A stretch of DNA of 64,000 bases, taken from Planctomycetota bacterium (lineage in GTDB: Bacteria > Planctomycetota > GCA-002687715 > CAIWVZ01). The first letter of the stretch is position 1, and every line of letters starts with the position of its first letter. Location: positions 472,608-536,607 of the forward strand of contig JBGANV010000004.1 in the NCBI GenBank assembly GCA_044222185.1, given 5' to 3'. The notes beneath the pieces are model-generated. The model saw only the letters and a program-made list of their open reading frames with translations, was not told the DNA's origin and did no database searches. The position numbers and the translations under genes were made by a program. Below, piece after piece: positions 45,899-63,013 of this stretch.

Positions 45899-47194
45899 CT
45901 ACCCAGTGACTACGGCCTGGTCCGTCGCCGCGAACGTCGTACGTCGCGGCGCGATCAGTTCGGCGTAGGGCGCGAACGCCTCGTCGACGATATCCCGCAG
46001 CAGCGCATCCGACCTGCCCATGTAGTGCCGCTCGGCGACGGACATGTTCCTCCCGCCTGCGGAGTGGCGGAGCAGCCGGCTGATGACGGACACATCGTTC
46101 CCGGCCTCCGCGAGGATGGTGGCGTACGTCTTGCGCCACCGCTTCCACGTGAAGCCCGGCATTTGCTTCTGGATCGTACGCAGCATCCTCGCGAGCGAGT
46201 TTGGCGTGACCTGCCCGTCGCGGGACGCGGTCCAGATGAAGCCGGACTCGCGGCGCCGCTCGATGAAGAGCGGCCACGCCGCGAGCGGGATCGGCTGCCA
46301 CTGGCGCGCCTGCCGCACCTTGGCGCCGTGGGACTCGGCGACGAAGATGAACCTGTTCTCCCAGTTCACATGCTCCCAGCGCGCCCCGCGGATCTCGACG
46401 GGCCGCAGGCCCAGGACCATGAGCCCGACGCCGAGCCACTCCATGTAGCTCCACCCCTCGGGCCGGAACCGGACGGGCGCGCGCACGAACTCGAAGAACG
46501 CCTTCACCTCGTCGTCCGTGAACGGGTTCGGCTCCGGAAGCTCCTCCTTCGGCCTGCGATAGGTGAGACGCGGGTCCTGCTTCAGCCAGCCCTTCCGTGT
46601 CGCGAAGTGGAAGAGCATCGAGAGCTGCTTCATCTTCGAGCAGACGCCCGAGTTCCTGCAGCCGCGCGCGAAGAGCTTCTTCTCGTACCGCTTGAAGTCG
46701 AGGTCGGACACGAGGTCGACGGCCTTGTCGCCCGCCACGCCGGCGAACTCGCGGAAGATGGCGCCGAGCGACTTCCGATAGGCCGGCGCCTGCCGTTCGC
46801 CGTAGAGCTCGAAGAACGTGTCGATCGCCTTCGACAGCGTCGGCGGGCCCGCCTCGAACGTCTCGGGACGCGCGGATGCAAGGCTGCGGAGGAATGCGTC
46901 ACGCAGCTGACGGGCGAGGTGCTCCGCCGTCTTCGTCGGCTTCCGGACCGTCTCCTCGTTCGGGATCGCGATGCCCGCGTCGGCGTACTTCTCGGGCACG
47001 CAGTTCATGAACTTCCGCTCGTGCGTGAACGGGTCGCGGTACGGGAACCGCCACACGCGCCGCGCCGCGAACCACCAGACCTCGCCGGTAATCGGGCGGA
47101 GGGCGCGCGTGGGCTTCGCGAGGATCGTCGTGTCTTCCACGGTTGTGCTCACGTCGACAGTCACGCTCGTCTCGTCGATCGAGTCAAGGCTCAT
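45899..47194 (-). CDS. Tyrosine integrase
   Basis: 'GLRPVEI', 'KRWRKTYAT' (HxxR variant), 'LLRHS', 'RHY'; start uncertain. Confidence 0.88.
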   Translation of the reverse strand: MSLDSIDETSVTVDVSTTVEDTTILAKPTRALRPITGEVWWFAARRVWRFPYRDPFTHERKFMNCVPEKYADAGIAIPNEETVRKPTKTAEHLARQLRDAFLRSLASARPETFEAGPPTLSKAIDTFFELYGERQAPAYRKSLGAIFREFAGVAGDKAVDLVSDLDFKRYEKKLFARGCRNSGVCSKMKQLSMLFHFATRKGWLKQDPRLTYRRPKEELPEPNPFTDDEVKAFFEFVRAPVRFRPEGWSYMEWLGVGLMVLGLRPVEIRGARWEHVNWENRFIFVAESHGAKVRQARQWQPIPLAAWPLFIERRRESGFIWTASRDGQVTPNSLARMLRTIQKQMPGFTWKRWRKTYATILAEAGNDVSVISRLLRHSAGGRNMSVAERHYMGRSDALLRDIVDEAFAPYAELIAPRRTTFAATDQAVVTG

Positions 47195-47522: not shown

Positions 47523-47812
47523 GTCTCCTCTTGGGTTGTTATTGATGCGTGCCGCTCCGGCTTCGTGCGGCGTCCCTGGCGATCAATTCGATTCGTGAGC
47601 TTCAGCGCGAGGACTCCGTCGCCGGCGTCATGGGGCAGTCGTCCCGTGATGAGACTTTCGACCATCGTGAGGCTCACGAGGTCGACGCCGCAGAGCTGTG
47701 CGAATTGAACCCGTCCCTCCGAAGCCCAGTTTCGGATCGTCTTCTCAGACCTGCCAACCATGGCGGCGAATTCCGCGACCGTGTAGTAGGTGTCGAGCTT
47801 GCCGACGATCAC
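47519..47812 (-). CDS. Excisionase-like helix-turn-helix protein
   Basis: 'YYTVAEFAAMVGRSEKTIRNWASEG'. Confidence 0.8.
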   Translation of the reverse strand: MIVGKLDTYYTVAEFAAMVGRSEKTIRNWASEGRVQFAQLCGVDLVSLTMVESLITGRLPHDAGDGVLALKLTNRIDRQGRRTKPERHASITTQEET

Positions 47813-48096
47813 GGCGTAGCCCTCGCATGCTCACGAAGGACGGCGGCCTCGATCCGCGCTTTGAGCGATGCATCGATCGGAATTGCGACGAGGTGCCGTG
47901 TCCCGTCTTGCGAGCGCCGCACGGGCCACGAGACGTAGCGGCGGCCGGTGATGGAGACACGGATTGCGATGCCGGAAATCATCCATCCGCCGACGATGAC
48001 GCTCGCGAATGAGAGCAAGCCCGCGCGTCGGAGCCCCTCGGACGCGAGCGTGATGCGCACGTCGTCGACGGTCGATGAGGTCGATGTGCGGTTCAT
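47809..48096 (-). CDS. SpoVG-like nucleic-acid-binding protein
   Basis: 'DVRI...LLSFASVIVGGWMISGIAI...YVSWP...PIDASLKARIEAAVL' pattern; GGAGG RBS. Confidence 0.7.
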   Translation of the reverse strand: MNRTSTSSTVDDVRITLASEGLRRAGLLSFASVIVGGWMISGIAIRVSITGRRYVSWPVRRSQDGTRHLVAIPIDASLKARIEAAVLREHARATP

Positions 48097-48218
48097 CGGA
48101 CCTCCGGGCCGGCTGTGCGGACGATCAGGACGTAGCCGCAATAGGCGCACCGCCACGTTCCGACGTCGAGCTCTCGGAGCGCCTCGCGGCAGACGGGGCA
48201 GACGAGGACGATGGTCAC
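48093..48218 (-). CDS. Small zinc-ribbon protein (41 aa)
   Basis: CPVC-x13-CAYC; 4-nt overlaps with both neighbours. Confidence 0.55.
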   Translation of the reverse strand: MTIVLVCPVCREALRELDVGTWRCAYCGYVLIVRTAGPEVR

Positions 48219-48655
48219 GATCCCCCTCCCGCAAACACGTGCTGCTGGGGCTTGGTCGCGCCTCCCGCCGTCAGCGGAGCGATACCCCACAAAAACTCGT
48301 AGAACCGCTCCATCTCCGGAACGGTCGGGTTGCGACTCCACAGATCGCAGCCGGTGATGCGATGGAACATGAACGCGAGGCTCGTGGCGTGGCGACGGCG
48401 ATATTCGGCCATCGTGTCGACGAGGTTGAAGCCGCGATGCGCACCGCCCGCTTCGTGCCTGTCGTCAAGCCACGGATCCCTCGCTGGGGCAGGCGCATGG
48501 AGGACCGCGCGGATTGCGATCGTGCGCGCTTGTAGCTGCGCGATCAGTTTGTCCGTGAGGACACCGTTCGCGTCTCGGAATGAGAGCCCCTCGGGCGAGT
48601 CCTCGATGCGGACGCCCCGGCCTGCGAGTTCCTGGACGATCCGGTGGGCGCTCAT
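48215..48655 (-). CDS. Primase-associated protein (TubC N-terminal-like domain)
   Basis: 'IVQELAGRGVRI...GLSFR...VLT...LIAQL' pattern; coupled to the primase stop. Confidence 0.6.
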   Translation of the reverse strand: MSAHRIVQELAGRGVRIEDSPEGLSFRDANGVLTDKLIAQLQARTIAIRAVLHAPAPARDPWLDDRHEAGGAHRGFNLVDTMAEYRRRHATSLAFMFHRITGCDLWSRNPTVPEMERFYEFLWGIAPLTAGGATKPQQHVFAGGGS

Positions 48656-51468
48656 GTTGCGCTCCCGTCGTCGACCGGTATGTCTTGAAGCAGCTCGTCG
48701 AAGCCCGTTGAGTCGCTCGATGTTGGCCGGGAAGTGTCGGTCGTTGGAGGCGCGGTGGGCGCGTCGTTCTCGGGAGGGCTCTCCGTGGAGATGATCGCGC
48801 TCGCGGGAATCACGACGACGTTGCGTCGAACCCCTTGAATCGTCTTCCGTACATCGCGACGGAGCGCGCCCCCGCGAGTGTCCTTCTCGATGATCAGTTG
48901 GGCATCGTCGAGACGCTGCTTGATCGTCCCCACAGAGAAGGGCAGGTCCTCGCCGGTCTCCTTGGCGAGCTTCTGGACGACAGCGATCGCCGCGGTGAAG
49001 TCCAGGTACAGCGCGTTGCCGTCGAGCCAGCCGACGAGCGTTGACGCCGGCGACATCGGCGTGGTCAGGCCGTCAGGCGACCATCCCCAGCGAGATGGAA
49101 TCGGCGGCGCCGAGCCGTCGACTCCCAACACGTAAGCCCGCCTCGTGGTAATCGCGGTGCCGAGCAGACCGACGAACCGGCGCGCGACGTCGTATTCAGC
49201 CACGTGTCCCGCCTGCTGTTCGCCGACCCCGACCAGTGCGTCACGGCAAGACTTCTGGATCTCAGTGGCGCGGTTCTGATCAATCGCGCGTGCTTTGATG
49301 GCGAATGCGAGGAAGCACTTCAACCCGATCAGGAGATCCGCGATCGCCTCGGGCGTTCGACAGTGCGCGCCGTCGGCTCGGAGTTCGTCGCGGAGACTCG
49401 CAAGCGCGTCGGGCAGCCGGGCGAGGAGCTTGCGCCGAAAGGACGCGAGCCACCTGATGAACCCCGACATCGCGCGCCCATACGCGCCAGAGGTCGCGTC
49501 CGCCTGGCACCCCTTGAGCTTCGTGGCATCGATCGCTCCCTTCGCGATTTCGACGATGATCATGCGCGCCCTGAGGGACTGTCCGCGCGGGATGTCCTCG
49601 CCGGTTGAGAGCAGGAGCGCGCGGGGCGGTTTCGGGGGGCGCAGCGACGTGTCGGCTTTCATGCGGGCGCGACCGCTCGCGTTCGCTTTCGCGCGAATCA
49701 GGCGTTCAGCCTCGCGGTGGATACGAACCCCATCAAGAGCGCTCGTTGGGACGAAGTCGTCGACGACGAGCAAGGCGTCCTTCGCGTAGAAGGCGGTGGC
49801 CTCGAGAGCGTTGCCGGTGGAGGTCCAGCTCGCGGGAAGGTGGTCGGCATCCATCTTCACCCCGAAGTGTCGTTGCATGAGCGCGGCGACCTCGGTCTTG
49901 AATCCTCCGGAGGGACCGAAGAGATGCACGGTCACCTCTGAAGTCGTCATCGCGGCCCTCCACGTTGCGCAGTAAATGGGGGCCGTGATCGAGGGCGGTG
50001 CGAGGTCGAGTAGGCGAAGTGACGCCTGGATGTCGCGCACCAGATCTTCCGGGTCCGGCGGATCGGGCAATGCGAAGTTTGCGAGCGTGCCCTCGAGGCG
50101 GACTTCGATGTTGGGAACCGGACCGCCGGAACCAATCGCGCCGTCGGCGTGGAGGTAGATGGACTCGCCTTCGTATTCACGCCAGCCCGTGTGGCGATAG
50201 ACGGTGCGCGGGACGACGCCGTCGGAGAGGAATTGAACCGCGGCGCGCGTGTGGTCCTTCGCACCGCTTCCCGCGGCGACGATGGCGAGCGGTCCCATGT
50301 GCGCCGTCGGCCAGTTCATGGTCGCGAAGTCAGTGGATGAGACGCGAAACGTGTGCGCGGATCCGTTGAGCGTCGCTTCGATCTGGAACTGGCGGACGGA
50401 TTCGACGCCGTCGTCCTCGGTCACGTCTGCGACGATCGTCGCCGCGAAGTTCGTGAGCTGAACGGGCTGCGTGCCCTCGCTGGTCGGCTTGTAGTAGAAG
50501 ATCCCGTGATCGGTCGCGCCGTAGGGGCAGAACTCCGTCGGTTGCCGCTTCACATCGGGCGCGACGAGCCTCATGAGATCGTCGAACGTCCCCCCGGTCG
50601 CGAAGAAGTCGTCGAGGCCGACCTTTTTGCCATCTGTACCCGAGGGCAAGTAGATCGGGTTGGCCTTTGCACCTCGGCTTCGCACGAAGGCGATCAGTCG
50701 GACCAGTGCGCCGCCGACCGCCTTCTTCTCCATCACATCGGAGTCGAAGACGACGAAGACGTTGCGGTTCTTGAGGACGATCGACTCGAAGCACGCGACC
50801 GCGGCCGATCCGCCCGCAGAGTTCTTCCCGCGCCAGTTCCACACGCCGAGGAGCGCGACGCAGCAGAGGCCGCGCGTGACTGCGGAGTCGGCCTTGCGGG
50901 AGCCCTCGGTGATGAAGAGATCGATCGCGGGATTGCCCAGCGACGCTCGGCTCCCTGGCGGAACGTCGATCACCATCCGCGCGCCCTTCGGCGTCTCGTA
51001 CTTCAGCAGCTTGCCACGCAGCTCGCGAGGGTCGTCGGGGCGGATCTGGTGGAGCGCGACGTTGCCGTGAACGTCGTGGATCGGGATCAACAACGCGGGG
51101 ACGCTGCACTGGACGAATCCGAAGCTGAGCGCACGAAGCTCGTCCTTGTCCGTCACCGAGCGGTAACCGCGCGCCGCAACGACCTCGGGCGAGATTGCGG
51201 ACGCGTCGAGGAGAGATTGATGCTGTGGGAGGAGTGACCGGGTGATCGCGACGGAATGCGCGTTCGCTTCGACGGCGACTCCCTCAGCACTGTGTGGCTC
51301 GACGTCGGCCGGCACTCCATCGGGTGCCTCGGCGCTGGAGACCGCGGCGTCCGGCGGCACGGCGTCGGTTGCGGGGATCGGGTCATTCGGCGCCGCCACG
51401 GTGGGAGGGATGTCGTCAGCTCGATCCGGGCCTTCTGCCTCGCCGTCGTGATCCTCGTCTGCGCTCAT
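48652..51468 (-). CDS. Toprim (DUF3854-like) primase fused to a P-loop helicase-like domain
   Basis: 'ITEGSRKAD', 'GVWNW', 'FDSD', 'GLDDF'; Walker A 'GPSGGFKT', Walker B 'LLVVDD'; ATGA overlap at the start. Confidence 0.85.
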   Translation of the reverse strand: MSADEDHDGEAEGPDRADDIPPTVAAPNDPIPATDAVPPDAAVSSAEAPDGVPADVEPHSAEGVAVEANAHSVAITRSLLPQHQSLLDASAISPEVVAARGYRSVTDKDELRALSFGFVQCSVPALLIPIHDVHGNVALHQIRPDDPRELRGKLLKYETPKGARMVIDVPPGSRASLGNPAIDLFITEGSRKADSAVTRGLCCVALLGVWNWRGKNSAGGSAAVACFESIVLKNRNVFVVFDSDVMEKKAVGGALVRLIAFVRSRGAKANPIYLPSGTDGKKVGLDDFFATGGTFDDLMRLVAPDVKRQPTEFCPYGATDHGIFYYKPTSEGTQPVQLTNFAATIVADVTEDDGVESVRQFQIEATLNGSAHTFRVSSTDFATMNWPTAHMGPLAIVAAGSGAKDHTRAAVQFLSDGVVPRTVYRHTGWREYEGESIYLHADGAIGSGGPVPNIEVRLEGTLANFALPDPPDPEDLVRDIQASLRLLDLAPPSITAPIYCATWRAAMTTSEVTVHLFGPSGGFKTEVAALMQRHFGVKMDADHLPASWTSTGNALEATAFYAKDALLVVDDFVPTSALDGVRIHREAERLIRAKANASGRARMKADTSLRPPKPPRALLLSTGEDIPRGQSLRARMIIVEIAKGAIDATKLKGCQADATSGAYGRAMSGFIRWLASFRRKLLARLPDALASLRDELRADGAHCRTPEAIADLLIGLKCFLAFAIKARAIDQNRATEIQKSCRDALVGVGEQQAGHVAEYDVARRFVGLLGTAITTRRAYVLGVDGSAPPIPSRWGWSPDGLTTPMSPASTLVGWLDGNALYLDFTAAIAVVQKLAKETGEDLPFSVGTIKQRLDDAQLIIEKDTRGGALRRDVRKTIQGVRRNVVVIPASAIISTESPPENDAPTAPPTTDTSRPTSSDSTGFDELLQDIPVDDGSAT

Positions 51469-51680
51469 GCCGTCCTCCGATCCGTGATGGACGGCCACGG
51501 CGGCGACGGAAGGTTCAGAAGCGCCGCGAGCTTCTCGACGTCGTCAGCGGTCCAGAGGAACTGTCCACCCGCGCGCATGGCGGGCTCGATCGCGCCGGAT
51601 CGGATCCGATTGCGGATCCGCGATTCGGGAAGAGGTGGGGTGAAGAGGCGTCGCACCTCGCCGGTCGTCATCAGTTTCAT
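51465..51680 (-). CDS. Small MerR/AlpA-like HTH protein
   Basis: AAGGA RBS; 'MTTGEV...RIRNRIRSGAIEP...FLWTADDVE'. Confidence 0.7.
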   Translation of the reverse strand: MKLMTTGEVRRLFTPPLPESRIRNRIRSGAIEPAMRAGGQFLWTADDVEKLAALLNLPSPPWPSITDRRTA

Positions 51681-51837: not shown

Positions 51838-52845
51838 TCAGGTCCAGTTGCTCGGCTTCCCCGCGCGAGCCTGATTGCGTGTGACGGAAGCCTTCAGCAT
51901 CGGGAGCGTCGGCTCGACTTCGATTCTGATCCAGTACTTCTCGCCGTTCGCTGCGTATTCAGGTGGCGGTAGCTCACATCGATCCACGAGACCGTCGAGC
52001 GCCGTTGGCGACGCTGCTCCGCACAGCTCCTGCAGCTGCTTCCGCGTAATTATGTCGTCGCGCCCGGTGGTCTCCGTCAATGCGACCCGATTCGACCTGG
52101 CTGGCGGCACCGTTTCTCCCAGTGCGCTCGAGAGATCGCGCCGTAGCGCGCGGACGTGTTCATGAAGCGAGGCCAGCACGTTCGCAGTAGTCGGCGTGGG
52201 ATGCCGGGCAACGACGCTGCTAATCGCTGTTGCAGAGAGCCGCTCGGTCATCAGTCGTTCCACGATCGCTTGATCAACGTCGCGTTCGAAGCACGCGCGC
52301 GCGAGCGGCAGAACGACGTTTTGGTGAGATGGGGGGTTAGTCTGGAAGACGACGCACGGCAACTGGTGTGGAAGCACATGAAGCGCATCCCTGAGTCGGT
52401 TCGTGCTCCGGGCGATCAGGGTGTCCGGTCCCCCGACATCCTCGCACGCCTTCTGAAACTCCGCGATCAACGCGGGTAAACCGGCGCCGAAGGAGGCCTC
52501 GATGCGGGGGCGGAACTCATCGCCGCAGAGGCGCACGTCATCGACAACGAAGACGTCCATCGCGTCCTTGGTCAGCTGGTCGAGCGCGTCGCCGAGCCGT
52601 CGGAAGAAGCGCCGGGCGTCTTCGCTCGACGGGGAGAAGAGAACCAGCGATCGAACATACGGACGAGTGAGTTCGACGGCACGCCCTGCCACGGCTGCGG
52701 ATCTTCCGCCCCCCACGTTCACCGGGGATGCGGCCGGAGCGATCATGGACACGACACGTTCGACGCGCGTCGTCGCCGCAAACCCCTTCTGCTGGCCGGG
52801 CACGATTGGACCCGTCCGCCCGTCCTGTCCGTACTTGAATGCCAT
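51838..52845 (-). CDS. Hypothetical protein with C-terminal AlpA-like HTH
   Basis: C-terminal 'IITRKQLQELCG...LPPP...YW'; GAGGGA RBS. Confidence 0.6.
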   Translation of the reverse strand: MAFKYGQDGRTGPIVPGQQKGFAATTRVERVVSMIAPAASPVNVGGGRSAAVAGRAVELTRPYVRSLVLFSPSSEDARRFFRRLGDALDQLTKDAMDVFVVDDVRLCGDEFRPRIEASFGAGLPALIAEFQKACEDVGGPDTLIARSTNRLRDALHVLPHQLPCVVFQTNPPSHQNVVLPLARACFERDVDQAIVERLMTERLSATAISSVVARHPTPTTANVLASLHEHVRALRRDLSSALGETVPPARSNRVALTETTGRDDIITRKQLQELCGAASPTALDGLVDRCELPPPEYAANGEKYWIRIEVEPTLPMLKASVTRNQARAGKPSNWT

Positions 52846-53042
52846 ATCGATCCCTCATGGAGGAGTCGCCGCTCCCAGCCACGGCGGATTCCGTCACAGC
52901 CTCCATGGTAGTGAGCCGGGGGGACGGCGGACGAGCGGCTGAGGAGGGCGGGCGATGTCCCGTCCGCAGCGTGCGACCGTTCGCCACGGGAGGGTCCGAC
53001 GACCGGGAATTCGTCGCTCTGGGAATCCCGGGTCGCGCTCGC

Positions 53043-53352
53043 GGGCCATTGGGCCATGGGCCACGGCCCACTTCGGAGAGAGAGCCGGCTGCGGAACGAC
53101 CCCAGATTTCACGGAGGCAGGCGGCCGGGAGCGATCCTGGAGACGTGTGAGAGCGTCGTCGACTACGTCCAAGACGAGGAAGAGGCGGGCCTGATCCAAG
53201 GAACTCTCAAAAACCGATTCTGCGTGATTGACCGGGACCACGCTTCCAACTTCCATGCTCTGAATGGGTTCCAACCGGTCGATGCGAATCTGAGGTTCTA
53301 TACGCCGGGGCCTCTCTCTCCCTATGAGAAATGGCCCATGGCCCAATGGCCC
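53043..53352. repeat. Inverted repeats flanking a 268-bp segment
   Basis: GGGCCATTGGGCCATGGGCCA (53043-53063) and its exact reverse complement (53332-53352); the match extends inward imperfectly. Confidence 0.9.
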
Positions 53353-53358
53353 AGACCG

Positions 53359-54210
53359 TTACCCCTCCAACGCCTGTCGGAGCCGGGTCTCGCAGACGCC
53401 CGTGTAAATCGTCGTGCTCTGGATGGAGGCGTGGTGGAGCGCGGTCTGGACGAGCCGGAGGTCGGAGGTCCGTTCCAGGAGCCGGATGGCGAATCCGTGG
53501 CGGAGGGCGTGGGGTCCAACGTCCACCCCGATTCCAGCAACCCGAAGCCAGTTGCGGAACCGGCGTTGGACTTGGCGGACTGTGACGCGACGGCCGTGGC
53601 GGTCGGTGAACAGGGCTCCGTCTGTCTTGGGGCCGATGAACGCCAGTAAGCGGTCGAGCACCGCTGTCGGGAGAAGGTGTCGCGCGGGTCGCCCCGCCTT
53701 GCTCTGCCGCAGGGTCGCGACCCTCTGTTCCCGATCGATGTCGGCCACGTCGAGCGCGACGGTCGCGCCGATTCGGGCCCCCGTGCCGGACAGGAACGTG
53801 AACAGCGTGTGGTCGCGTTGGGCTTCGAACCCTTGGTTTGCTGCGATCGTCCCGAGCAGGCGGTCCCGGTCGTCGTCGCGAAGCCACCGTGGCGGCGGAC
53901 TCGCACAGAGGGCGCGTCGGACGATGCGGGCGGGGTCGGTTGGGATGATTCCCGCTTCGTGCAGGTAGCGGAACACGCCTCGAACCGAGGTGCGGATCGC
54001 GTTCATGGTGACCGGCCACCTCGAGGCGCGAGTCTCGGGCGCGGCAAGAAACGCTGCGACATCCTCGTGCGTGATTGACTCGACGCTGCGGTCGCCGGCC
54101 CACCCGATGAGCGTCATGACGTGCCGCCGATACTGGGAGATCGTTCCCGGGGCGCGACCGTCCGCCTGCAACTGCGCGAGGAATCGATCGAGGGCGTCTT
54201 GGAGGTTCAT
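53359..54210 (-). CDS. XerC/D-like tyrosine recombinase
   Basis: 'TGARIG', 'PHALRHGFA', 'LHHASIQSTTIY'; 283 aa with core-binding and catalytic domains. Confidence 0.92.
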   Translation of the reverse strand: MNLQDALDRFLAQLQADGRAPGTISQYRRHVMTLIGWAGDRSVESITHEDVAAFLAAPETRASRWPVTMNAIRTSVRGVFRYLHEAGIIPTDPARIVRRALCASPPPRWLRDDDRDRLLGTIAANQGFEAQRDHTLFTFLSGTGARIGATVALDVADIDREQRVATLRQSKAGRPARHLLPTAVLDRLLAFIGPKTDGALFTDRHGRRVTVRQVQRRFRNWLRVAGIGVDVGPHALRHGFAIRLLERTSDLRLVQTALHHASIQSTTIYTGVCETRLRQALEG

Positions 54211-54267
54211 CTTGGAGGTGCCCTGGTTAGAACGAGCGGGCCAAGTTGACCCGCTCCGGAGGATGGA

Positions 54268-54753
54268 TCAGCCCGCCGTCGCGTAGGGGACGGAGGTGAT
54301 CACTCCTGACGCTTTCGCCCAGCTCAGCGCGAGCCTCAGAGCGCGACGCGTCTTCAGGATCGTCGGCTGCGCTTTCGGCTTCCCCTTCTTCGTCTTCGTG
54401 ACGAGGTCGCTCGCTTCGAACGCGGCGATGTCGTCAGGGGTGATCAAACCCGCGACCCTCGAAGCCTCGAAGTGCCTCATGGCAAGTTCCAAGTCACCCC
54501 CGTAGCTCGCGACCGTGGACGCGGTCTTCCCGCGCTCGCGCATGCTGTTCAACCATCCTTCAGCGATCGTCTTCAAGGTGGCAGGGCCGCCACTCGGAGT
54601 GGGTAAGTCTGGCACAGTGCCGAACGCGGCTTCCGGCGCATGGTTCTCCGACGGCGGCGTCGTGCCCTTCGTCTTCTTCCGTGCGGTCGCCACACGGTTC
54701 TTCATCCAGTTTGCGGAGGGTTCGGCCGCGGCCTTCTTGCTCTTCGTCGTCAT
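54268..54753 (-). CDS. Stand-alone integrase core-binding (SAM-like) domain protein
   Basis: 'KTASTVASYGGDL...ITPDDIAAF...PTILKTRRALRLALSWA...GVI'; ends before any catalytic domain. Confidence 0.7.
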   Translation of the reverse strand: MTTKSKKAAAEPSANWMKNRVATARKKTKGTTPPSENHAPEAAFGTVPDLPTPSGGPATLKTIAEGWLNSMRERGKTASTVASYGGDLELAMRHFEASRVAGLITPDDIAAFEASDLVTKTKKGKPKAQPTILKTRRALRLALSWAKASGVITSVPYATAG

Positions 54754-54959
54754 GAGGGGCTCCGTTCTTCGACGACAGCGGCGCGGCCCGGGATCACAAG
54801 GACGATTGTTCCGTCCGGGGTTCGCCCAGGAATCGGAACGCCGTTCAAGCCGCTCGTGAGCGCCTCGAACTCGTCGACGTCCCAGCAGTCCACGATCTGG
54901 TTCCACAACGTGGGATCGGGCGTGAACGTCTCGGGTATCTCGATCAACCGCAGCGTCAT
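54750..54959 (-). CDS. Hypothetical small protein (69 aa)
   Basis: GGAG RBS; ATGA overlap with the downstream gene. Confidence 0.55.
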   Translation of the reverse strand: MTLRLIEIPETFTPDPTLWNQIVDCWDVDEFEALTSGLNGVPIPGRTPDGTIVLVIPGRAAVVEERSPS

Positions 54960-55072
54960 CGTCGCGCTCCATTCACGCCGGCACCATCGCCTGCGCGTGC
55001 GACACATGGAGCCTCGTTTCGCCTCCGATTGGAAGGCAATTCCGCTCGTCTTCCGAGCGGCGGAACCGCGCT

Positions 55073-56353
55073 TCAAAGGATGTAGACACCCGCCTTCTGC
55101 CGAGGCCGAAAATGCCATGCGGCGAGCGCCAGTCCGATCACGCAGTCGTCGTGCATTCCGGACGGCGCGCCAGTCTTGATGTTTCCCGTTTCGCCGACTG
55201 TGAACTCGAATGCTTCGATCTCGTCGATGCCGACCGGCCAGACGATCGCAGACGGCAAGACGATCTCCCGACGTTCGATCAGCAGCACCAGGTTGTCGAT
55301 CAGCGCCGCCTTCGATCGCGACGTGAATGGATATGCGTCCACGCGAACGCCCGCGGCCCGCAGCGTCTCGAACACCGGCTCGCCGGCCCCCGTCGTGTCC
55401 ACCGTAAGCCGGGCGTTGTTGTACCTGCCCGCGATGCCCTTGATCCGCGCGACCTGCGTCGACCAGTCCTCACGGTGGAATCGCTCCGCGTGGACGACGC
55501 GATTCTCCATGTCCATGATCACGAGAACGGTGAAGTCCTCCACCTTCGCGAGGTCCAATCCGCCCACATAGCGAACGTCGGGCCTTGGATCCTCGAAGGT
55601 CCCTGTCGCGCACTCACGCACGCCGCGAAATACCTGGCCCGCGCCCTCCAGGAACTCGCCGCCGAACTCCTGGCGGAAGACGCGCTCCGGAAGCCGATCC
55701 CGCTCCTGTTCGATGAGGACCGCGTTGAGCAGCGGGTTCGTCCAGGACGGCAGGTTCCACGACTGGTAGTCCGGATCGCTGCCGGGCTGCCCTCGGCGCC
55801 ACTGATCGAAGAACCATCCCTTGCCGCGCGGCGTCGAAATCATGAGCGCCCAGCCGTGCTTATCGATCAGGCGTTGGGAGAGGTGCGATTCCCAGATGTG
55901 AGGCCGAAGCCGAGCGGCTTCGTCGATCACGAGCCAGTCCAATCCCTCGCCGAGGAGCGAGACCGGATTGTCCGCGCTCTTGCCACGAATCTCCGACAAC
56001 CCACCACCGAGGTTGCGAAGCACGAGACGACGATCGTGCTCTTTCAGCGTGACGATCCGGTGTCGGAGGTGTTCGGCGGTCAACACCACGATCTCGCGGA
56101 ACACGCGGTCGGCGAGGTCGTACGTCGGCGCGCATACCCATCCGCAGGATCTTCCCGCCGGCATCATCGCTGCTGCGATGCCTTCAGCGGCTGCCGCAAG
56201 AGTCTTTCCCCAACGCACACCGCAGGCGACGATCCGTCGGCGCGCCGTCGAACGGTGGATCTGCACCTGTCCCGCGTGCGGCGCGTAGCCGAGGGACTCG
56301 AACAGTGCCCGCTTGCTGACGCGGAGATCAACTGCCGGTTGCGCTCCAGTCAT
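55073..56353 (-). CDS. Phage terminase large subunit
   Basis: 'GVRWGKT', 'LVIDEAA', 'ISTPRG', 'FRQEF', nuclease motifs 'GLDLA...DFT' and 'HDDCV'. Confidence 0.9.
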   Translation of the reverse strand: MTGAQPAVDLRVSKRALFESLGYAPHAGQVQIHRSTARRRIVACGVRWGKTLAAAAEGIAAAMMPAGRSCGWVCAPTYDLADRVFREIVVLTAEHLRHRIVTLKEHDRRLVLRNLGGGLSEIRGKSADNPVSLLGEGLDWLVIDEAARLRPHIWESHLSQRLIDKHGWALMISTPRGKGWFFDQWRRGQPGSDPDYQSWNLPSWTNPLLNAVLIEQERDRLPERVFRQEFGGEFLEGAGQVFRGVRECATGTFEDPRPDVRYVGGLDLAKVEDFTVLVIMDMENRVVHAERFHREDWSTQVARIKGIAGRYNNARLTVDTTGAGEPVFETLRAAGVRVDAYPFTSRSKAALIDNLVLLIERREIVLPSAIVWPVGIDEIEAFEFTVGETGNIKTGAPSGMHDDCVIGLALAAWHFRPRQKAGVYIL

Positions 56354-56789
56354 CCTTCTCTCCGGGCTTGAGCATCAGTGTCTCGTACTCGCGCTTGATG
56401 ATCGTTGCGACGTCGAGCACAGAACGGTCGGAGGGCTCGCCGCGGATCACCCGCTCCTGATCGACCGCAGCGGCCAACGCTTTCGCGGCAGCCGTGGCGT
56501 TGTCCAGCGGCATGTTCTTCAACGCCTCGATGGCTCGGTTCTGGATCAGGTGGACGAGGCGCAAGTGCCGATCGTTCATCTCCTCGAGCGACTCAATCGC
56601 CTTCTTCTGTGCTTGCTCGCGGGCAGCACGCTCCTGCTGGGCGACCCGGTTCTGCCAGTTCTCCTTCTTCGCCCGCGTACAGACAGAGCGCTTGCACACG
56701 CCGAACTTCTCGGCAATGGCGCCGTAGGATCGGGCCGGGCCGAGTGCGAGGTAGGTCTCGAACGCGTCGTGGGGGAGCTTGCGAGTCAT
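56328..56789 (-). CDS. Putative terminase small subunit
   Basis: N-terminal HTH 'RSYGAIAEKFGV...W' plus helical region; directly upstream of and overlapping TerL. Confidence 0.7.
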   Translation of the reverse strand: MTRKLPHDAFETYLALGPARSYGAIAEKFGVCKRSVCTRAKKENWQNRVAQQERAAREQAQKKAIESLEEMNDRHLRLVHLIQNRAIEALKNMPLDNATAAAKALAAAVDQERVIRGEPSDRSVLDVATIIKREYETLMLKPGEKDDWSATGS

Positions 56790-56918
56790 TTCACGAGAAA
56801 TGTCACCGCGCACACGAGCATCACGTACGCGATGAAAAGGAACTGAATCCACGGGGCAGAGTTCTCCGCGAAGTCCTCGCGGATCCTCCGACTCTGGGTA
56901 CGGACGAACCCGATGAGG

Positions 56919-58262
56919 TCACGCATGGTTGCTTCTCCGTTCGTCTGCACTCGCTGCGAACGTCCGCCCCGAGCCTTCGAGCGTGGCCTCGCGACCGGTC
57001 GCTGTCTGCCAGCGCGTCACGATGACGTCGCAGTACGCCTCGTCGAGTTCCATCAGGAACGCGCGGCGGTTCGTCTGCTCTGCGGCCATGAGCGTCGAGC
57101 CGGATCCTCCGAAGAGGTCGAGGACGTTCTGGTTGATCAGCGATGAATAACCGATCGCGCGAGCCGCGAGTTCGACAGGCTTCTCCGTCAGGTGGACCAT
57201 TTTCACGGGCGCGACCTTCTGGATCTCCCAGACGTCGGGGATGTTGTTTGGGCCGAAGAAGACGTGCGCGGCGCCTTCCTTCCAGCCGTAGAAGCACCAC
57301 TCGTGGTTGCCCATGAAGTCCTTGCGCGTGAGGACGGGGTGGCCCTTCACCCAGATCACGGCCTGCGAGAAGTAGAGGCCGTGGCGCTTCAGGACGGGCG
57401 GGTAGTTCCCGCAGTTCGCGTAGCCACCCCAGATGTAGAACCCGCCGCCGGGCACGAGGACCCGTGCGATGTTGCCGAACCAGGCGTCGAGGAGCGCGTC
57501 GAATGCTTCATCGCTCACGAAGTCATTGGCGAGAGGGCGATCCTTCGCGCGCATCTTCGGCGAAGCCCGACGCGTGCCACCCTCCGCGTCGCTCCGCTGG
57601 TGTTGCATCGTTCCCTGGAACGAGGAGAGGCCGGCCGCGATCGCGTTGTTCGATCGGGGCTCCACCTTCACGTTGTACGGCGGGTCGGTGGTTACGAGGT
57701 GGACGAGCGCGCCGGCGAGGAGCCGATCGAGATCCTGGGCGCTGCCGGAATCGCCGCACATGAGTCGATGCCGCCCCAGGGTCCACAGATCGCCGCGCTT
57801 CGTCACGGGGTTGTCGGGCGGGAGCGGAGGTTCGTCTTCGGCGACATCGCCAACATCCGAGAGCAACTCGTCCACGTCCGCGTCGCTGAATCCCACACCA
57901 TCCATCGCGCCGGCATCACGCAGCTCGGAGAGGATCCTCGCGAGCACCTCGTCGTCCCACGTTGCGGTCTCGGCCGACCTGTTCAACGCGATGCCGAGCG
58001 CCGTCGCCGTCATGTCGTCTACGTCCAGCTCGACCACATCGGCCTCGCTCCAGCCGAGCGCCTTCATGGCCGTGAGACGCCCGTGCCCGCCGATGATGCG
58101 TCCGGTCTTCGCCTGGACCACGAGCGGTTCGGCTTGTCCGAAACGACGAAGCGACGCCGTGATCGCATCGAGGTTCTCGTCGGGGTGGCGACGCGCGTTC
58201 GCGGGGTCGGGGACGAGGGACGAGAGTGGACGACGCCTGATCGTCAGCGAGTCTCCGGACAT
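56919..58262 (-). CDS. ParB-like domain + DNA methyltransferase (phage type)
   Basis: 'PDPANAR', 'IIGGHGRL'; 'TDPPYN', 'HLTEKP', 'LDLFGGSGST'; GGAGG RBS. Confidence 0.9.
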   Translation of the reverse strand: MSGDSLTIRRRPLSSLVPDPANARRHPDENLDAITASLRRFGQAEPLVVQAKTGRIIGGHGRLTAMKALGWSEADVVELDVDDMTATALGIALNRSAETATWDDEVLARILSELRDAGAMDGVGFSDADVDELLSDVGDVAEDEPPLPPDNPVTKRGDLWTLGRHRLMCGDSGSAQDLDRLLAGALVHLVTTDPPYNVKVEPRSNNAIAAGLSSFQGTMQHQRSDAEGGTRRASPKMRAKDRPLANDFVSDEAFDALLDAWFGNIARVLVPGGGFYIWGGYANCGNYPPVLKRHGLYFSQAVIWVKGHPVLTRKDFMGNHEWCFYGWKEGAAHVFFGPNNIPDVWEIQKVAPVKMVHLTEKPVELAARAIGYSSLINQNVLDLFGGSGSTLMAAEQTNRRAFLMELDEAYCDVIVTRWQTATGREATLEGSGRTFAASADERRSNHA

Positions 58263-58391: not shown

Positions 58392-58719
58392 TGCACCGCC
58401 GCCGTGCGGAACGCGCCCCTCTGGCAGGCGCGGTGCAAATGGCCGCGACGGTGCCGAGCGCGGGGGAGCCGCGGAGACTCCGGGAATTCCGCGCTGGATC
58501 GGCTGTTCCCTCCACGGCGGCGACTGCACCGCGCGCGTCGTCGGGACGTGGTCGTCGTGTCCCCTCGATCCGCGCATGTCACGGTGGCCCGCGAAGATGG
58601 GAGCGTGCGTGCCCGTCGACACGATCTCCGTAGGGGTGATGTTCCGGTGCAATTGGTGCAGGTCGCACACTGCAGGATGTGCGACATCCGAACTTGCACC
58701 GGACGATGCAATCGGTGCA
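58392..58719. repeat. Iteron-like array of TGCACC/GGTGCA
   Basis: Copies at 58392, 58432, 58525, 58646, 58655, 58695 and 58714 in both orientations, in non-coding DNA. Confidence 0.65.
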
Positions 58720-58728
58720 GTTGGCGGA

Positions 58729-59622
58729 TCAGTCCTCCGCGAAGTAATCGCTGTCGAGCTTCTTCACCGCATAGATCTGCCGGTCCACGACGCCCACGCC
58801 GTGGTCGATCATGAGGTCGGCGAGTTGCTCCCCGTCAAGGAGGACGATCCGTTTCTCGATTTGCTCGGAGTACTTCCTGGCCTCGGCGCTGAATGTGGAT
58901 GTCGTGATCAAAACTCCGCGCCTCGATCGCACGCCGTCGAGGCTGCCGGCGAACGTCTGCACGACGGGCCTGCCGACGACTCCACCCCAACGTTTCGCTT
59001 GGATGTAGACCGTGTCGAGACCGAGCTTGTCCTCGCGGATCAGTCCGTCGATTCCGCCGTCACCGCTTCGCCCGAGGACACGTCCTGCGTTGCGGGCGTC
59101 GCCGCCGTACCCCATCGCCACCAGGACGTCGATCACGATCTTCTCGAAGAACGCGGGTGTACCAGCCTTGATGGTCTCGATGATGGTCTGGGCGAGGTCA
59201 CGTCGGAGGACTTGGTATGCCGCCTCAATCGTCTCTTCGGGCGTCTCGACTTCCTTCGCCGTGGTGACCACCGACGGTTCAGCCTCGCGGAACGCGCGGT
59301 ACTCCGCGTACTGCTGCAGGACGCTCATGTCGATTCGTTCTGGCTTGGACGCGAGGAGGGCATGACCACGCGGCGTGATTCGAACGACTCCGCGCGACGG
59401 CTTTTCGACCAGGCGGGCCTCCTGCATGTGTTTGATTGCCCACCCGACTCGATTGTCAGCGCGGCGTTGCCTGCCGCTCGGCAGTCTTTCTTCCAAGTCG
59501 GAGTCTGTGAGACGGAGATTCGCGGAGAGTTGCACGACGATTTCGGGCGCTCGCCGGTCCTTGTCGTCAGAGAGCAGGCGCAGCGTCGGAAGCATGAGGG
59601 ACTGGAAGTCGGGAATCGCCAT
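58729..59622 (-). CDS. mrr: Mrr family restriction endonuclease
   Basis: 'MAIPDFQSLMLP', 'NRVGWA', 'DGGIDG', 'YIQAKRW', 'GVLITTS'. Confidence 0.93.
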   Translation of the reverse strand: MAIPDFQSLMLPTLRLLSDDKDRRAPEIVVQLSANLRLTDSDLEERLPSGRQRRADNRVGWAIKHMQEARLVEKPSRGVVRITPRGHALLASKPERIDMSVLQQYAEYRAFREAEPSVVTTAKEVETPEETIEAAYQVLRRDLAQTIIETIKAGTPAFFEKIVIDVLVAMGYGGDARNAGRVLGRSGDGGIDGLIREDKLGLDTVYIQAKRWGGVVGRPVVQTFAGSLDGVRSRRGVLITTSTFSAEARKYSEQIEKRIVLLDGEQLADLMIDHGVGVVDRQIYAVKKLDSDYFAED

Positions 59623-60216
59623 GAGGGGGCAGAGTATAGCCCAACCCGCGCACGCAGATGGGGCGCGCGTGTGCGCACGGCGGCGCGCTACATCGACTCC
59701 GAGCCTGATCTCACACAAGCGACACGCACGCGACGGAAGGTAGACCGGGGGTTGCAAGAGAGCAAGAAATGAGCCCCCTGCCGACCGCGTCCGCGCGGTC
59801 CTGAAGACGAGGTCGGCGCGCCAGGAACGGGCGCCGGCGTCAGGCGTGCCTTCTACGCGGCGGACGGGACGGTGGCGTTGCTCCGGCCGAGGCGACCCGA
59901 TGAGCTGTGTGGGGCAGCCGTCATGCCGGGAGATGGTCGTCGTCTGCTCTCACGGCGCCGAGGTCTGGCGAGATGGTCAGGTGGCGCCTGACCGGTGGCC
60001 TTCGCCGGCAGATGACTGGTCATTCTCGGGCGGCGCCGCTAACGGATCGTGCCACGCAGTACCGCCGGCTCGTGTCGCAGAGCTTGGACTGCGAGGACGT
60101 TGGCGGAGCAACGAACCACACGCCCTGGAGGCCGCGTGCATTCAGCACGCGGGAATTCGCTCGCGCGGGCCCGGGCGTCGCAGCGCCCGCGGGTAGGTGA
60201 CATACGGCGATTCGAT

Positions 60217-60931: not shown

Positions 60932-61711
60932 ATGGATGCTCCAACCGAGTTCTGCTCCTGGCTGAGTTCGCACGTTGCGAATGACCACAAGTACGGTCGC
61001 GACGTGTTTCGGTATCACCCTCGGTCCGACGCCCACTCCAGGAAGCTCTGTGAACTCGTGCTGCGTGACCTCGCGGTCGCATGCCCGGTCCTCGCAAGGC
61101 ACCTCGCCGCGCACGTCGTCATCGGGGTGACGAACGCCAGGTACGAGTTCCCGAGTGGGAAGCGCAAGGCCCTCGATCTGCTGGTCTGTGACGCGCCACG
61201 CGCGACCGACGCAGCAACGGCGCTCATGATCACGTCGCTTGGCCAGCCGGAGAGCTCATCGCTTCGTGTCTCGGTGGAAGCGAAACAGTGCATGACGGAG
61301 CACGGGAAGACGCAGCCCCGGATCTTCGACGAGCTGTCGTCGTCACACGAGATTGTTCACCAAGGGTGTCGAAACTCGATCGCCGGTGGTATCGTCGTTG
61401 TGAACGTGGCGACTGCCTTCGCTTCCCCATTGCGGCAGGTTTCCTCGACGGGGCCGTTGGTCGTGAGCCGCCATCGTCAGCCGGCCGTCACAGAGGCGAT
61501 GATCAAGCACCTGCGCGGCCTCAAGCAGCGAGAGAGCCCGACTGAAATCGGATTCGACGCGTTCGCGACGGTCGTCGTCGACTGCGACAACCTTGGAGCC
61601 TGCCGCCTTCACACCGAGCGACCTGCACCCCAGCCGGGTGATCTCGATCACTACGCGACGTTCATTTCGCGTCTCGCGCGCGCGTATGAATCCCGGTTCG
61701 GCGATGCGTAA
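60932..61711 (+). CDS. Putative type II restriction endonuclease
   Basis: 'LDL...VEAK' PD-(D/E)xK-like motif; convergent with a methyltransferase; start could be 60902. Confidence 0.65.
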   Translation: MDAPTEFCSWLSSHVANDHKYGRDVFRYHPRSDAHSRKLCELVLRDLAVACPVLARHLAAHVVIGVTNARYEFPSGKRKALDLLVCDAPRATDAATALMITSLGQPESSSLRVSVEAKQCMTEHGKTQPRIFDELSSSHEIVHQGCRNSIAGGIVVVNVATAFASPLRQVSSTGPLVVSRHRQPAVTEAMIKHLRGLKQRESPTEIGFDAFATVVVDCDNLGACRLHTERPAPQPGDLDHYATFISRLARAYESRFGDA

Positions 61712-62639
61712 AAATCGGCTTCGCATCGAATAGCGACGGCTCCGACAACTCGCGATGTATGCGAGCTTTCGCGAGCGTGGAGTAGGCAGGATCGATTTCG
61801 TTGCAGACGCTGTGTCGGTTGGCGCGGATCGCTGCGATCGTGACGGTTGCCGTGCCCGCGAAGGGGTCGAGAACGGTGTCTCCCGTGAACGAGAACATCC
61901 GGATCAATCGGTAAGCGAAGTCGACCGGGAATGGAGCCGGGTGCTCGCGCGTTGATGCCCCGGTGATGTCCGACCAGAGAGGCCGGAACCATGCGCCCTG
62001 CTCTTCCTTCGTCAGTCGCGAAGTCTCACGCTGGGATTGGGACGGGCTGCGGTAGTCCCCGTGCTTGCGGAGCATGAGCACGTACTCCACATCGTTCTTG
62101 ATGATCGCGTTGGGTTCGTACGGCTTGCCGAGGAATCCCCCACCGTTGCCGGCGGCCTCGAACTTGGCGTTCGCGATCTTGTTCCAGAGGATCGGCGTGA
62201 GGTAGTCGAAGCCGATCGCTCGGCATCGAGTGCTGATGTCGGCGTGAAGCGGCAGCACGTGGTGGCGGCCACCGTTCCTCCGGCGTGCGATGCAGACGTC
62301 GCCGACGTTCACAACGAGACGCCCGCCCGGAACGAGCGTCCGGTAGCAGTGTCGCCACACCTTGTCCAGTTCGTCGTGGAAGGCTTCGTAGTCGTCGATG
62401 TCTCCGAGCTGCGCCTCGTGGTCGTTGTACTTCTTGAGGTTGAAGTAAGGAGGTGAGGTGACGACGAGGTGGATCGACCCATCGTCTATCCAGCCAAGCT
62501 CGCGGGCGTCCCCGGTGTTGAGGACGTGGTGGGTGGGCTCTCCGTCGTATTTGCGAGGGACGGGAATCGCGGTGGCTTCTGCGCGGGTTCGACGTAACGC
62601 CGAAGTGGGATCGGGGGGCATCTTCTGGGGCTGTGGCAT
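61662..62639 (-). CDS. Site-specific DNA methyltransferase (beta class, probably N4-cytosine)
   Basis: 'VTSPPY' precedes 'HPAPFP' and 'VLDPFAG'. Confidence 0.92.
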   Translation of the reverse strand: MPQPQKMPPDPTSALRRTRAEATAIPVPRKYDGEPTHHVLNTGDARELGWIDDGSIHLVVTSPPYFNLKKYNDHEAQLGDIDDYEAFHDELDKVWRHCYRTLVPGGRLVVNVGDVCIARRRNGGRHHVLPLHADISTRCRAIGFDYLTPILWNKIANAKFEAAGNGGGFLGKPYEPNAIIKNDVEYVLMLRKHGDYRSPSQSQRETSRLTKEEQGAWFRPLWSDITGASTREHPAPFPVDFAYRLIRMFSFTGDTVLDPFAGTATVTIAAIRANRHSVCNEIDPAYSTLAKARIHRELSEPSLFDAKPIFTHRRTGIHTRARDAK

Positions 62640-63013
62640 GGACGACACGAGACTTTACCGACCTCCGCCACGTGTGGAAGGCGCGGACAGGAACGATGAG
62701 GTGCGGACCCGTGGCTGGCCGAAAGGGATCATCGCATCGCGGGGTGACATCCGCCTTCCTACCGAGATTCCTAGGCAGGAGGCTCCAAGATCCCGCGATC
62801 ATCGAGATTGTCATCGGAGGGCCGCTCCACCGCGGTGGGCCAGTCGGCGAAGACGGTGACAACGGAGGATGTCCGGTAGGTTGTCGTACTCCGCGGCAAG
62901 AGGTCCGCGATGGCAGTTGCGGCCTTCGGCACGGCTGCGGTGGTGGTCATGCCATGCGCGGTGCGGGGCGCGTCCATCTCAGCTCACCTCGGTCCCCTCT
63001 GTGCCCTGCACGG

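Follow-up and report, generated by a model that had tools for sequence, protein, structure and literature searches.

A candidate iteron-type replication origin at the seam between the packaging and replication genes of an integrated element in a Planctomycetota bacterium

An origin made of opposed iterons and served by a self-loading primase-helicase is a design already known from phage P4 and from the SaPIs. The alpha protein of P4 joins a primase, a helicase and a C-terminal origin-binding domain in one polypeptide; the P4 origin has short repeats in both orientations, and a second cis site, crr, located some kilobases away, is also needed. SaPI origins are described as having 6-12 iterons immediately 3' of rep with an AT-rich centre, at least two of them on each side and running in opposite directions; the C-terminal winged helix of Rep binds the iterons, the suggestion being that each side receives one of two hexamers (PMC9371898). 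Proteins of the DUF3854 type are plasmid Rep proteins in cyanobacteria (PMC10079941).

The stretch analysed here, which we call the window, comprises 64,000 nucleotides from a Planctomycetota bacterium (contig JBGANV010000004.1, positions 472,608 to 536,607). It contains a 310-bp segment bounded by an inverted repeat that, we propose, is probably the iteron-type replication origin of an integrated satellite- or plasmid-like element, served by the primase-helicase that the element itself encodes. The first-pass annotation of this DNA had put forward opposed iterons marking a satellite-type origin as its second reading, after that of an invertible switch, and the comparison with relatives speaks for this second reading. 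What we observed directly is the repeat, the fact that it is unique, and its association by position with replication genes in related elements. The features to which the text refers are the following:

45899 to 47194, minus strand: tyrosine integrase of 431 aa (Pfam Phage_integrase), at the far end of the replication block
48652 to 51498, minus strand: primase-helicase of 948 aa, with DUF3854 Toprim-like and DUF927 domains (Pfam) and a PHROG assignment as DNA primase; the proposed initiator
51465 to 51680, minus strand: ORF for a small protein of 71 aa, just upstream of the primase, called "HTH" in the first-pass annotation
51838 to 52845, minus strand: ORF for p335, 335 aa, the first gene after the array
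53043 to 53063, no strand assigned: outer left arm, on the p335 side, with three tandem GGGCCA(T) units (8, 7 and 7 nt), candidate iterons; TRF period 7, 2.8 copies
53064 to 53108, no strand assigned: inner left arm, imperfect, with a fourth unit, CGGCCCA, oppositely oriented, followed by GGAGAGAGAG and CCGGC
53109 to 53286, no strand assigned: central spacer, with the lowest G+C of the region; a candidate unwinding region
53287 to 53331, no strand assigned: inner right arm, imperfect, with CCTCTCTCTCC and neighbours
53332 to 53352, no strand assigned: outer right arm, on the recombinase side, with three GGGCCA(T) units in the orientation opposite to that of the left arm, ending 6 bp from the recombinase stop codon
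53359 to 54210, minus strand: XerC/XerD-like tyrosine recombinase of 283 aa (Pfam Phage_integrase plus a SAM-like domain), abutting the array
54268 to 54972, minus strand: CB-only protein of 234 aa, whose C-terminal half resembles a recombinase core-binding domain, without a catalytic domain
55073 to 56353, minus strand: TerL (Pfam, PHROG), in the packaging block, which spans 55073 to 58262
56328 to 56852, minus strand: TerS (Pfam, PHROG), packaging block
56919 to 58262, minus strand: ParB-N/DNA methylase (Pfam, PHROG), packaging block

The anatomy of the repeat agrees with what had been annotated from the letters. The two outer arms (53043-53063 and 53332-53352) form a perfect inverted repeat, with 21 nt per arm, 100% complementarity and 268 nt between them, and the iterated GGGCCA(T) units of which they had been said to consist were recovered independently, since TRF calls a period of 7-8 with 2.8 and 3.1 copies in the two arms. 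The imperfect inward extension of the arms was confirmed as well, over 28 nt at 71%, and over 66 nt at 76% when the segment was compared by BLAST with its own genome. Two further details of the first-pass annotation hold: 6 bp separate the right arm, which ends at 53352, from the stop codon of the recombinase, whose ORF including the stop begins at 53359, and the ORFs found on both strands across the repeat (53056-53649 on the plus strand and 52894-53346 on the minus strand) both start with MGHGP.

The repeat is also unique in its surroundings. When up to three mismatches were allowed, the 21-mer had just two sites in the window, which are the two arms, and none of 100 dinucleotide-preserving shuffles reached two matches. 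No other opposed array of this style was detected between 44000 and 64000 of the window, and one local 6-2-6 palindrome (TGGGCC-AC-GGCCCA) is present, at the left arm only. The 310-bp segment occurs once in the genome (7.08 Mb in 16 contigs, 93.8% complete), and because it is single-copy we rejected the idea that it is a MITE or another transposon with terminal inverted repeats. The strong predicted fold of the segment (z -5.2) is what an inverted repeat by itself would give. The covariance models of Rfam 15 returned no match at E values up to 1 in 52000-55000, and a known structured RNA family was discarded as an identity for the segment.

Between the arms the base composition changes. The G+C content is 0.547 in 53150-53299, against about 0.65-0.69 around it; taken over the whole spacer it is 0.59, with a lowest 40-nt window of 0.42 and flanks of 0.65, so that the dip is real but modest. 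In several related arrays the spacer shows no enrichment in AT (G+C 0.74 in L076 and 0.68 in L095); this, like the modest size of the dip in the window, we count against an origin. A gene within the spacer was considered and rejected: the two open frames found there have GC3 values of 0.65-0.70, compared with 0.72-0.82 in the neighbouring genes, and thus no coding bias; they matched nothing in Pfam, and no homologs were found, the tblastn matches being exclusively antisense to the recombinase. No sigma-70-like promoter or terminator consensus was detected in 52600-53500, although sigma-70 may not be the promoter type of this host.

All genes from about 45.9 to 58.3 kb lie on the minus strand. 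Taken in their reading direction, the ParB-N/DNA methylase, TerS, TerL, the 234-aa CB-only protein and the XerC-like recombinase precede the repeat, and p335, the 71-aa protein, the 948-aa primase-helicase, a 146-aa protein, a SpoVG-like protein and the 431-aa tyrosine integrase follow it. The repeat is therefore located at the seam between a packaging/recombinase block and a replication block, and its position upstream of the HTH, primase and integrase genes, already proposed in the first pass, is borne out by this gene order. The same module order would account for the neighbour of the array: the packaging/recombinase block ends where the replication block begins. The XerC-like recombinase, although adjacent, is probably not the partner of the array. 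About 1.35 kb separate the array of the window from the primase start, with p335 and the HTH gene in between; SaPI origins directly follow their initiator gene, and this difference counts against the origin reading.

Several of these proteins deserve comment. The recombinase alignment shows no variation in the catalytic R, K, H, R and H columns, and of the 10 sequences that reach the tyrosine column 9 have this residue; the scores of the protein against the XerC/XerD models are about 135 bits, under the cut-offs of 279-335. The CB-only protein matches a PHROG integrase profile (profile positions 136-250, E 3.9e-7) and, of 10 other loci tested, 9 encode it upstream of the recombinase. Neither p335 nor the 71-aa protein had a match in Pfam, PHROG or NCBIfam; for p335, neither the rest of the genome nor the retrieved loci contained a homolog, and the 71-aa protein gave a weak tblastn match to the equivalent gene in L020. 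The 431-aa integrase is the probable chromosomal integrase of the element; a search of 36-64 kb for direct repeats that would bound the island as attachment sites revealed none that was convincing.

The packaging/recombinase block has two further copies in the same genome (contigs C6 and C3), and relatives elsewhere. The C6 paralog is 88% identical to the window in TerL, 88% in TerS, 84% in the ParB-methylase, 78% in the CB protein and 49% in the recombinase, and it carries neither a primase nor a GGGCCA array, of which there is no other example anywhere in the genome. The presence of closely similar TerS, ParB-methylase and CB proteins in a paralog that has no array argues against these proteins as its binder. 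An alignment-driven scan for the recombinase found 80 metagenome loci and 3 viral-contig loci, with identities of 39-49%; a search of genome contigs with the single recombinase sequence had given one distant match. Two relatives, L020 and L023, reproduce the full layout of the window with different replication proteins (a DUF3854 protein of another lineage and a DUF3987 protein), and encode a large serine recombinase in place of the terminal tyrosine integrase, which means that these elements do not use the internal XerC-like recombinase as their chromosomal integrase.

Does the array travel with the recombinase? The first-pass annotation had made conservation of the repeat beside homologous recombinases a test of its switch, and this conservation was not borne out: of the 66 recombinase loci whose downstream sequence reaches 500 nt or more, only four (the window, L023, L084 and L020) carry a strong inverted repeat immediately behind the gene. 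In those four the repeat scores range from 15 to 30, compared with a 95th percentile of 12 in 593 control windows, and the array starts 5 bp (L023), 6 bp (window), 8 bp (L084) and 70 bp (L020) past the recombinase stop. All have arms made of tandem arrays, but the units are unrelated (GAGGGTTTT, GTCGAATTC, GCTGACAAC); the arms are perfect over 21-24 bp in the window and L023, and near-perfect over 30 bp in L084. In three of these four loci no more than 8 bp lie between the recombinase stop and the array, which may point to a link with the recombinase and is counted against an origin; we read it as compact spacing.

Elsewhere in the family the arrays are found at the replication genes. Six family elements (L074, L076, L077, L081, L095 and L104/L105) have arrays located 2.4-4.2 kb from the recombinase, with two or three 9-bp units per side in opposed orientation; their starts fall in the interval from about 400 nt ahead of the stop of a large replication ORF to 12 nt past it. 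The replication ORFs with which arrays are associated span DUF3854/DUF927, Prim-Pol, D5_N/NrS-1/DUF5906 and DUF3987 families, and some that are unassigned, each with its own repeat unit. With a strict detector, which demands that each strand have two or more exact 6-mers spaced 7-11 nt apart, 17 arrays were identified in 587 kb of recombinase-family loci and none in a shuffle. An array was seen in only 13 of the 35 recombinase loci with about 5 kb downstream, a fraction that counts against the origin reading. Opposed arrays are likewise present upstream of the ParB-methylase (L023, 2492-2632; also the genome's own C3 copy, L019) and beside TerS (L084, 1625-1733); the array style is therefore not exclusive to replication genes, and these elements put it to at least one further use, perhaps packaging.

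The association was also approached from the side of the primase. The window primase matched 29 of 401 genomes of the phylum at E 1e-30 or better, and 6 loci in viral contigs. In the 35 primase loci so obtained, with that of the window left out, the strict detector found 15 arrays in 176 kb, compared with 0.0 in shuffles. All 15 map to the margins of the primase gene or outside it: five precede its conserved part at a short distance (L110, L138, L112, L116 and L124), eight are no more than about 360 nt from the stop or immediately follow it (L076, L115, L117, L120 and L139-L142), and two are further downstream (+477 and +1337). In the 4-12 kb upstream of the five upstream cases, tblastn at E 1e-5 detected no homologs of the recombinase, the CB protein, TerL, TerS or the ParB-methylase; primase genes can thus have an array where neither a recombinase nor a terminase homolog was detected. 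Two aspects of this survey count against an origin served by the primase, namely that only 13 of the 35 primase loci show an array, and that the sequence of the unit does not follow overall primase identity, L110 and L138 (46-47% identity) carrying ACCGCT. A GGCCCA-type core that would track primase relatedness (window, L076, L124 and, in part, L025) could not be established for the same reason, as the closer L110 and L138 use ACCGCT. The L124 array (GGCCCACTTC followed by a GGAG-rich stretch) resembles the arms of the window by eye, and DNA homology between them was rejected because the alignment z of at most 3.0 versus shuffles is not significant.

The primase itself offers a candidate binding domain. 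In an AF2 model of its residues 680-915 (236 residues, mean pLDDT 81), a helical bundle is followed by a winged-helix-like unit. The best match among solved structures was the C-terminal domain of SaPIbov1 Rep (residues 372-558; 8tch), with a Foldseek E of 0.013 and a probability of 0.97, and VIA comparison of the two gave a Z of 8.8 over 178 residues with an rmsd of 7.5; the next matches were winged-helix DNA binders and the SCCmec Cch helicase. With scores this marginal, the modelled likeness to SaPIbov1 Rep should be taken as a hint; at the sequence level no relation between the DUF3854/DUF927 primase and SaPI Rep was detectable. From the arrangement as a whole we infer binding, melting and origin activity, in the following manner. 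Two opposed sets of three to four 7-8-bp units flank the 268-bp centre of lower G+C; the primase-helicase would bind the units through its C-terminal winged-helix region, one assembly would load on each arm, the two facing each other, the centre between the arms would melt, and priming would proceed in both directions, after induction or excision of the element.

The preferred interpretation of the first-pass annotation was a switch of the FimB/FimE type, in which the recombinase would flip 53064-53331 and make the replication and excision genes phase-variable. The geometry is classical: invertons have inverted repeats around about 0.1-1 kb, and here perfect 21-nt arms, 268 nt apart, lie beside a tyrosine recombinase gene. 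The rest of the evidence does not support it, and we consider such a switch very unlikely. The repeat adjoins the recombinase in just the four loci mentioned, with arrays located elsewhere in the family, and the tyrosine-invertase models score far below their cut-offs (NF007371, 44.6 bits versus 222; NF007370, 36 bits versus 221). No promoter consensus was seen inside the segment, with the caveat that the sigma-70-like type searched may not be that of the host. The mapping of both orientations that the first-pass annotation had suggested was made on assembled Logan contigs of four public runs, at low depth, and is a weak test because contigs drop rare variants; within this limit, a contig (2563 nt, depth about 7) of X1, the one run with the whole stretch, spans 52400-53684 in the orientation of the window, the only orientation seen, and the contigs of the four runs show no strand-switch joints at the arms, where rare variants would be missed; other runs that contain some of the stretch have small shares, which tell nothing about habitat or orientation. 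The comparison of orientation in relatives pointed the same way and revealed no inversion. A 217-nt contig of run X2, which matches only 53043-53092 (46/50 nt) and has unlike flanks, has, next to the left arm, the initial 29 nt of the inner spacer in unchanged orientation, and is therefore not inverted there; the two copies in genome G354 also share one orientation.

Other functions could be imagined for such an array. It might be an operator, with binding sites for the 71-aa HTH protein, p335 or the SpoVG-like protein, that controls transcription of the next gene and not the initiation of replication. Tandem units of 7-9 bp are typical of some repressor operators, every array seen is intergenic or at a gene end and precedes a gene of the same orientation (p335 in the window, the SpoVG-like gene in L074), and the spacers of several related arrays are not AT-rich. 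Yet the arrays follow unrelated families of replication genes, also in loci that were found through the primase alone, the lack of a p335 homolog in any other locus means that p335 cannot be their common partner, and the region 52600-53500 lacks the sigma-70-like promoter that was searched for, which may not be the type used by the host; an operator is, on balance, unlikely. We regard as quite unlikely that the XerC-like recombinase next to the array, alone or with the CB-only protein, uses it for multimer resolution or as a secondary attachment site, the arms being accessory or core sites. Recombinases are often encoded beside their own sites, and in the window, L023 and L084 the array is 5-8 bp past the stop of a recombinase that retains its catalytic residues and that, in an element with a separate terminal integrase, needs another job. 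This reading has to contend with the scarcity of the array downstream of homologous recombinases (4 of 66 loci), with arrays that exist without a recombinase homolog in the flanks examined, and with the architecture of the arms. The cores of dif, lox and IRS sites consist of two inverted half-sites of about 11-13 bp, 6-8 bp apart; here there is no half-site pair at 6-8 bp, the arms are 268 bp apart and the local 6-2-6 palindrome is restricted to the left arm. A pac or cos-like packaging site recognised by the TerS of the element appears very unlikely, even though TerS and TerL are encoded 2-3 kb away, P1 pac comprises two sets of short repeats around the cut site, and other arrays of the family are beside TerS or upstream of the ParB-methylase. 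The C6 paralog, with a TerS 88% identical, has no GGGCCA array; L023 and L084 carry two different arrays each, of which that abutting the recombinase lies farther from the packaging genes; and some arrays are at primase genes whose examined flanks lack a terminase homolog. Finally, the site could serve two uses, as an iteron origin whose symmetric arms are also substrates of the CB-only/XerC-like pair, for a fork flip or for multimer resolution at the origin. This would explain both the position of the array no more than 8 bp from the recombinase stop in three of four cases and the perfect (window, L023) or near-perfect (L084) arms, and, if true, one fork would be turned round by recombination between the arms while replication proceeds in both directions, as in the FLP-driven amplification of the yeast 2-micron plasmid; we give it a very small chance.

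An iteron-type origin served by the primase-helicase remains our preferred reading of the segment. If it is correct, it provides a concrete and testable origin for a widespread, uncharacterised family of integrated elements in environmental bacteria, whose members carry TerS, TerL, a ParB-methylase, the CB-only/XerC-like pair, interchangeable replication modules and a terminal integrase. It also implies that an inverted repeat beside a recombinase gene should not be taken for an inverton until it has been checked whether the repeat travels with the recombinase or with the replication genes.

How does the proposed origin compare with the known systems? With fimS and its FimB/FimE recombinases, and with other invertons, the segment shares inverted repeats around a few hundred base pairs beside a tyrosine recombinase gene. 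The invertons, however, have a single short repeat with flanking half-sites, whereas the arms of the window are made of tandem iterated units; and, unlike FimB and FimE, the recombinase of the window is XerC/XerD-like, one orientation of the segment was seen, and the repeat is not conserved beside the homologs. Like the alpha protein of phage P4 and its origin, the element has a single primase-helicase polypeptide, with origin binding proposed for the C-terminus, and short repeats in both orientations. It differs in that crr has no counterpart, a second GGGCCA array being absent from the island and from the genome. The comparison with the SaPI and PICI origins reveals differences in detail. 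The units are 7-8 bp long in the window and 5-6 in the SaPIs; the 268-bp centre is mildly AT-enriched (G+C 0.59 versus 0.65), whereas that of the SaPIs is simply described as AT-rich; the initiator is of the DUF3854/DUF927 type, without a detectable relation to SaPI Rep in sequence; and the array precedes the replication block, where that of the SaPIs directly follows the initiator gene. What the described SaPI origins and the window have in common is the overall design. Both have short iterons in two opposed sets around a centre, which in the window, with its modest dip in G+C, is a candidate for easier melting; where the SaPIs are described with at least two opposed iterons per side, the window has three perfect units per arm and one more at the left arm. 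Both belong to an integrated element with its own primase-helicase, integrase and terminase subunit, and the C-terminal winged helix described for SaPI Rep/PriRep may have an equivalent in the modelled C-terminus of the window primase, which matches SaPIbov1 Rep best, at marginal scores. Even the 3' position typical of the SaPIs is found within the family, in the arrays of L074, L076, L077, L081, L095 and L104/L105.

A block comprising a ParB-methylase, TerS, TerL, the core-binding-like CB-only protein and an XerC-like recombinase is present in three copies in the source genome, one in the window and the others on contigs C6 and C3:

Window 54268-58262, block copy
C6:910836-916890 (element copy L018), block copy
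C3:26759-31858 (element copy L019), block copy
Window 54268-54972 (-), CB-only protein, 234 aa, with a recombinase core-binding-like C-terminal half

The C6 copy is without a primase, and in it TerL is doubled in tandem, the two genes being 88% and 76% identical to the window TerL. The other half of the CB-only protein, at its N-terminus, is basic, and a catalytic domain is absent. Its gene lies immediately upstream of the recombinase in nine of the ten other loci tested. In the recombinase alignment (A1), the homolog from locus L011 (G002:C610) carries a Cys in place of the expected catalytic Tyr (STIVCAKA); this copy could be inactive, or the Cys could reflect an error in sequencing.

Run X2, from another metagenome, has contigs that match the region of the repeat arms beside the window recombinase. 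A 217-nt contig aligns at 46 of 50 nt only to window 53043-53092, which covers the left arm and 29 nt of inner arm, with both flanks unrelated, and another contig matches 53314-53569 at ~98%. At a depth of ~3, these matches hint only weakly that the arms are kept in a related element amid differing surroundings.

Some elements carry opposed tandem-repeat arrays of a second class, built of other units. These lie either next to TerS or on the upstream side of the ParB-methylase and may serve as packaging sites:

L023 2492-2632 (oriented), array
L019 12010-12268 (oriented; own genome, C3), array
L084 1625-1733, array
L098 124-802, array

The equivalent place in the window holds just a weak inverted repeat (28 nt, 75%) at 58518-58726. 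At locus L076, a repeat array (7408-7576) lies inside the primase ORF as called, its units translating to AHEAHEAQ; either it occupies a dispensable C-terminal tail of the primase or the real stop lies earlier.

The window element also contains, or is flanked by, the following genes:

47809-48234 (-), SpoVG-like small protein (Pfam SpoVG, score under gathering)
42500-44266 (+) and 58729-59757 (-), restriction-type flanking genes
61662-62648, additional DNA methylase

The SpoVG-like gene directly past the replication gene is conserved in the window, L020, L023 and L074. One of the restriction-type genes encodes a DUF2357/PD-(D/E)XK protein, the other an Mrr-family endonuclease.

Many metagenome contigs also carry the ParB-methylase/TerS/TerL/CB-only/recombinase block, and no capsid genes were found near it. 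The block may represent an undescribed family of capsid-less integrated elements that bear a terminase.
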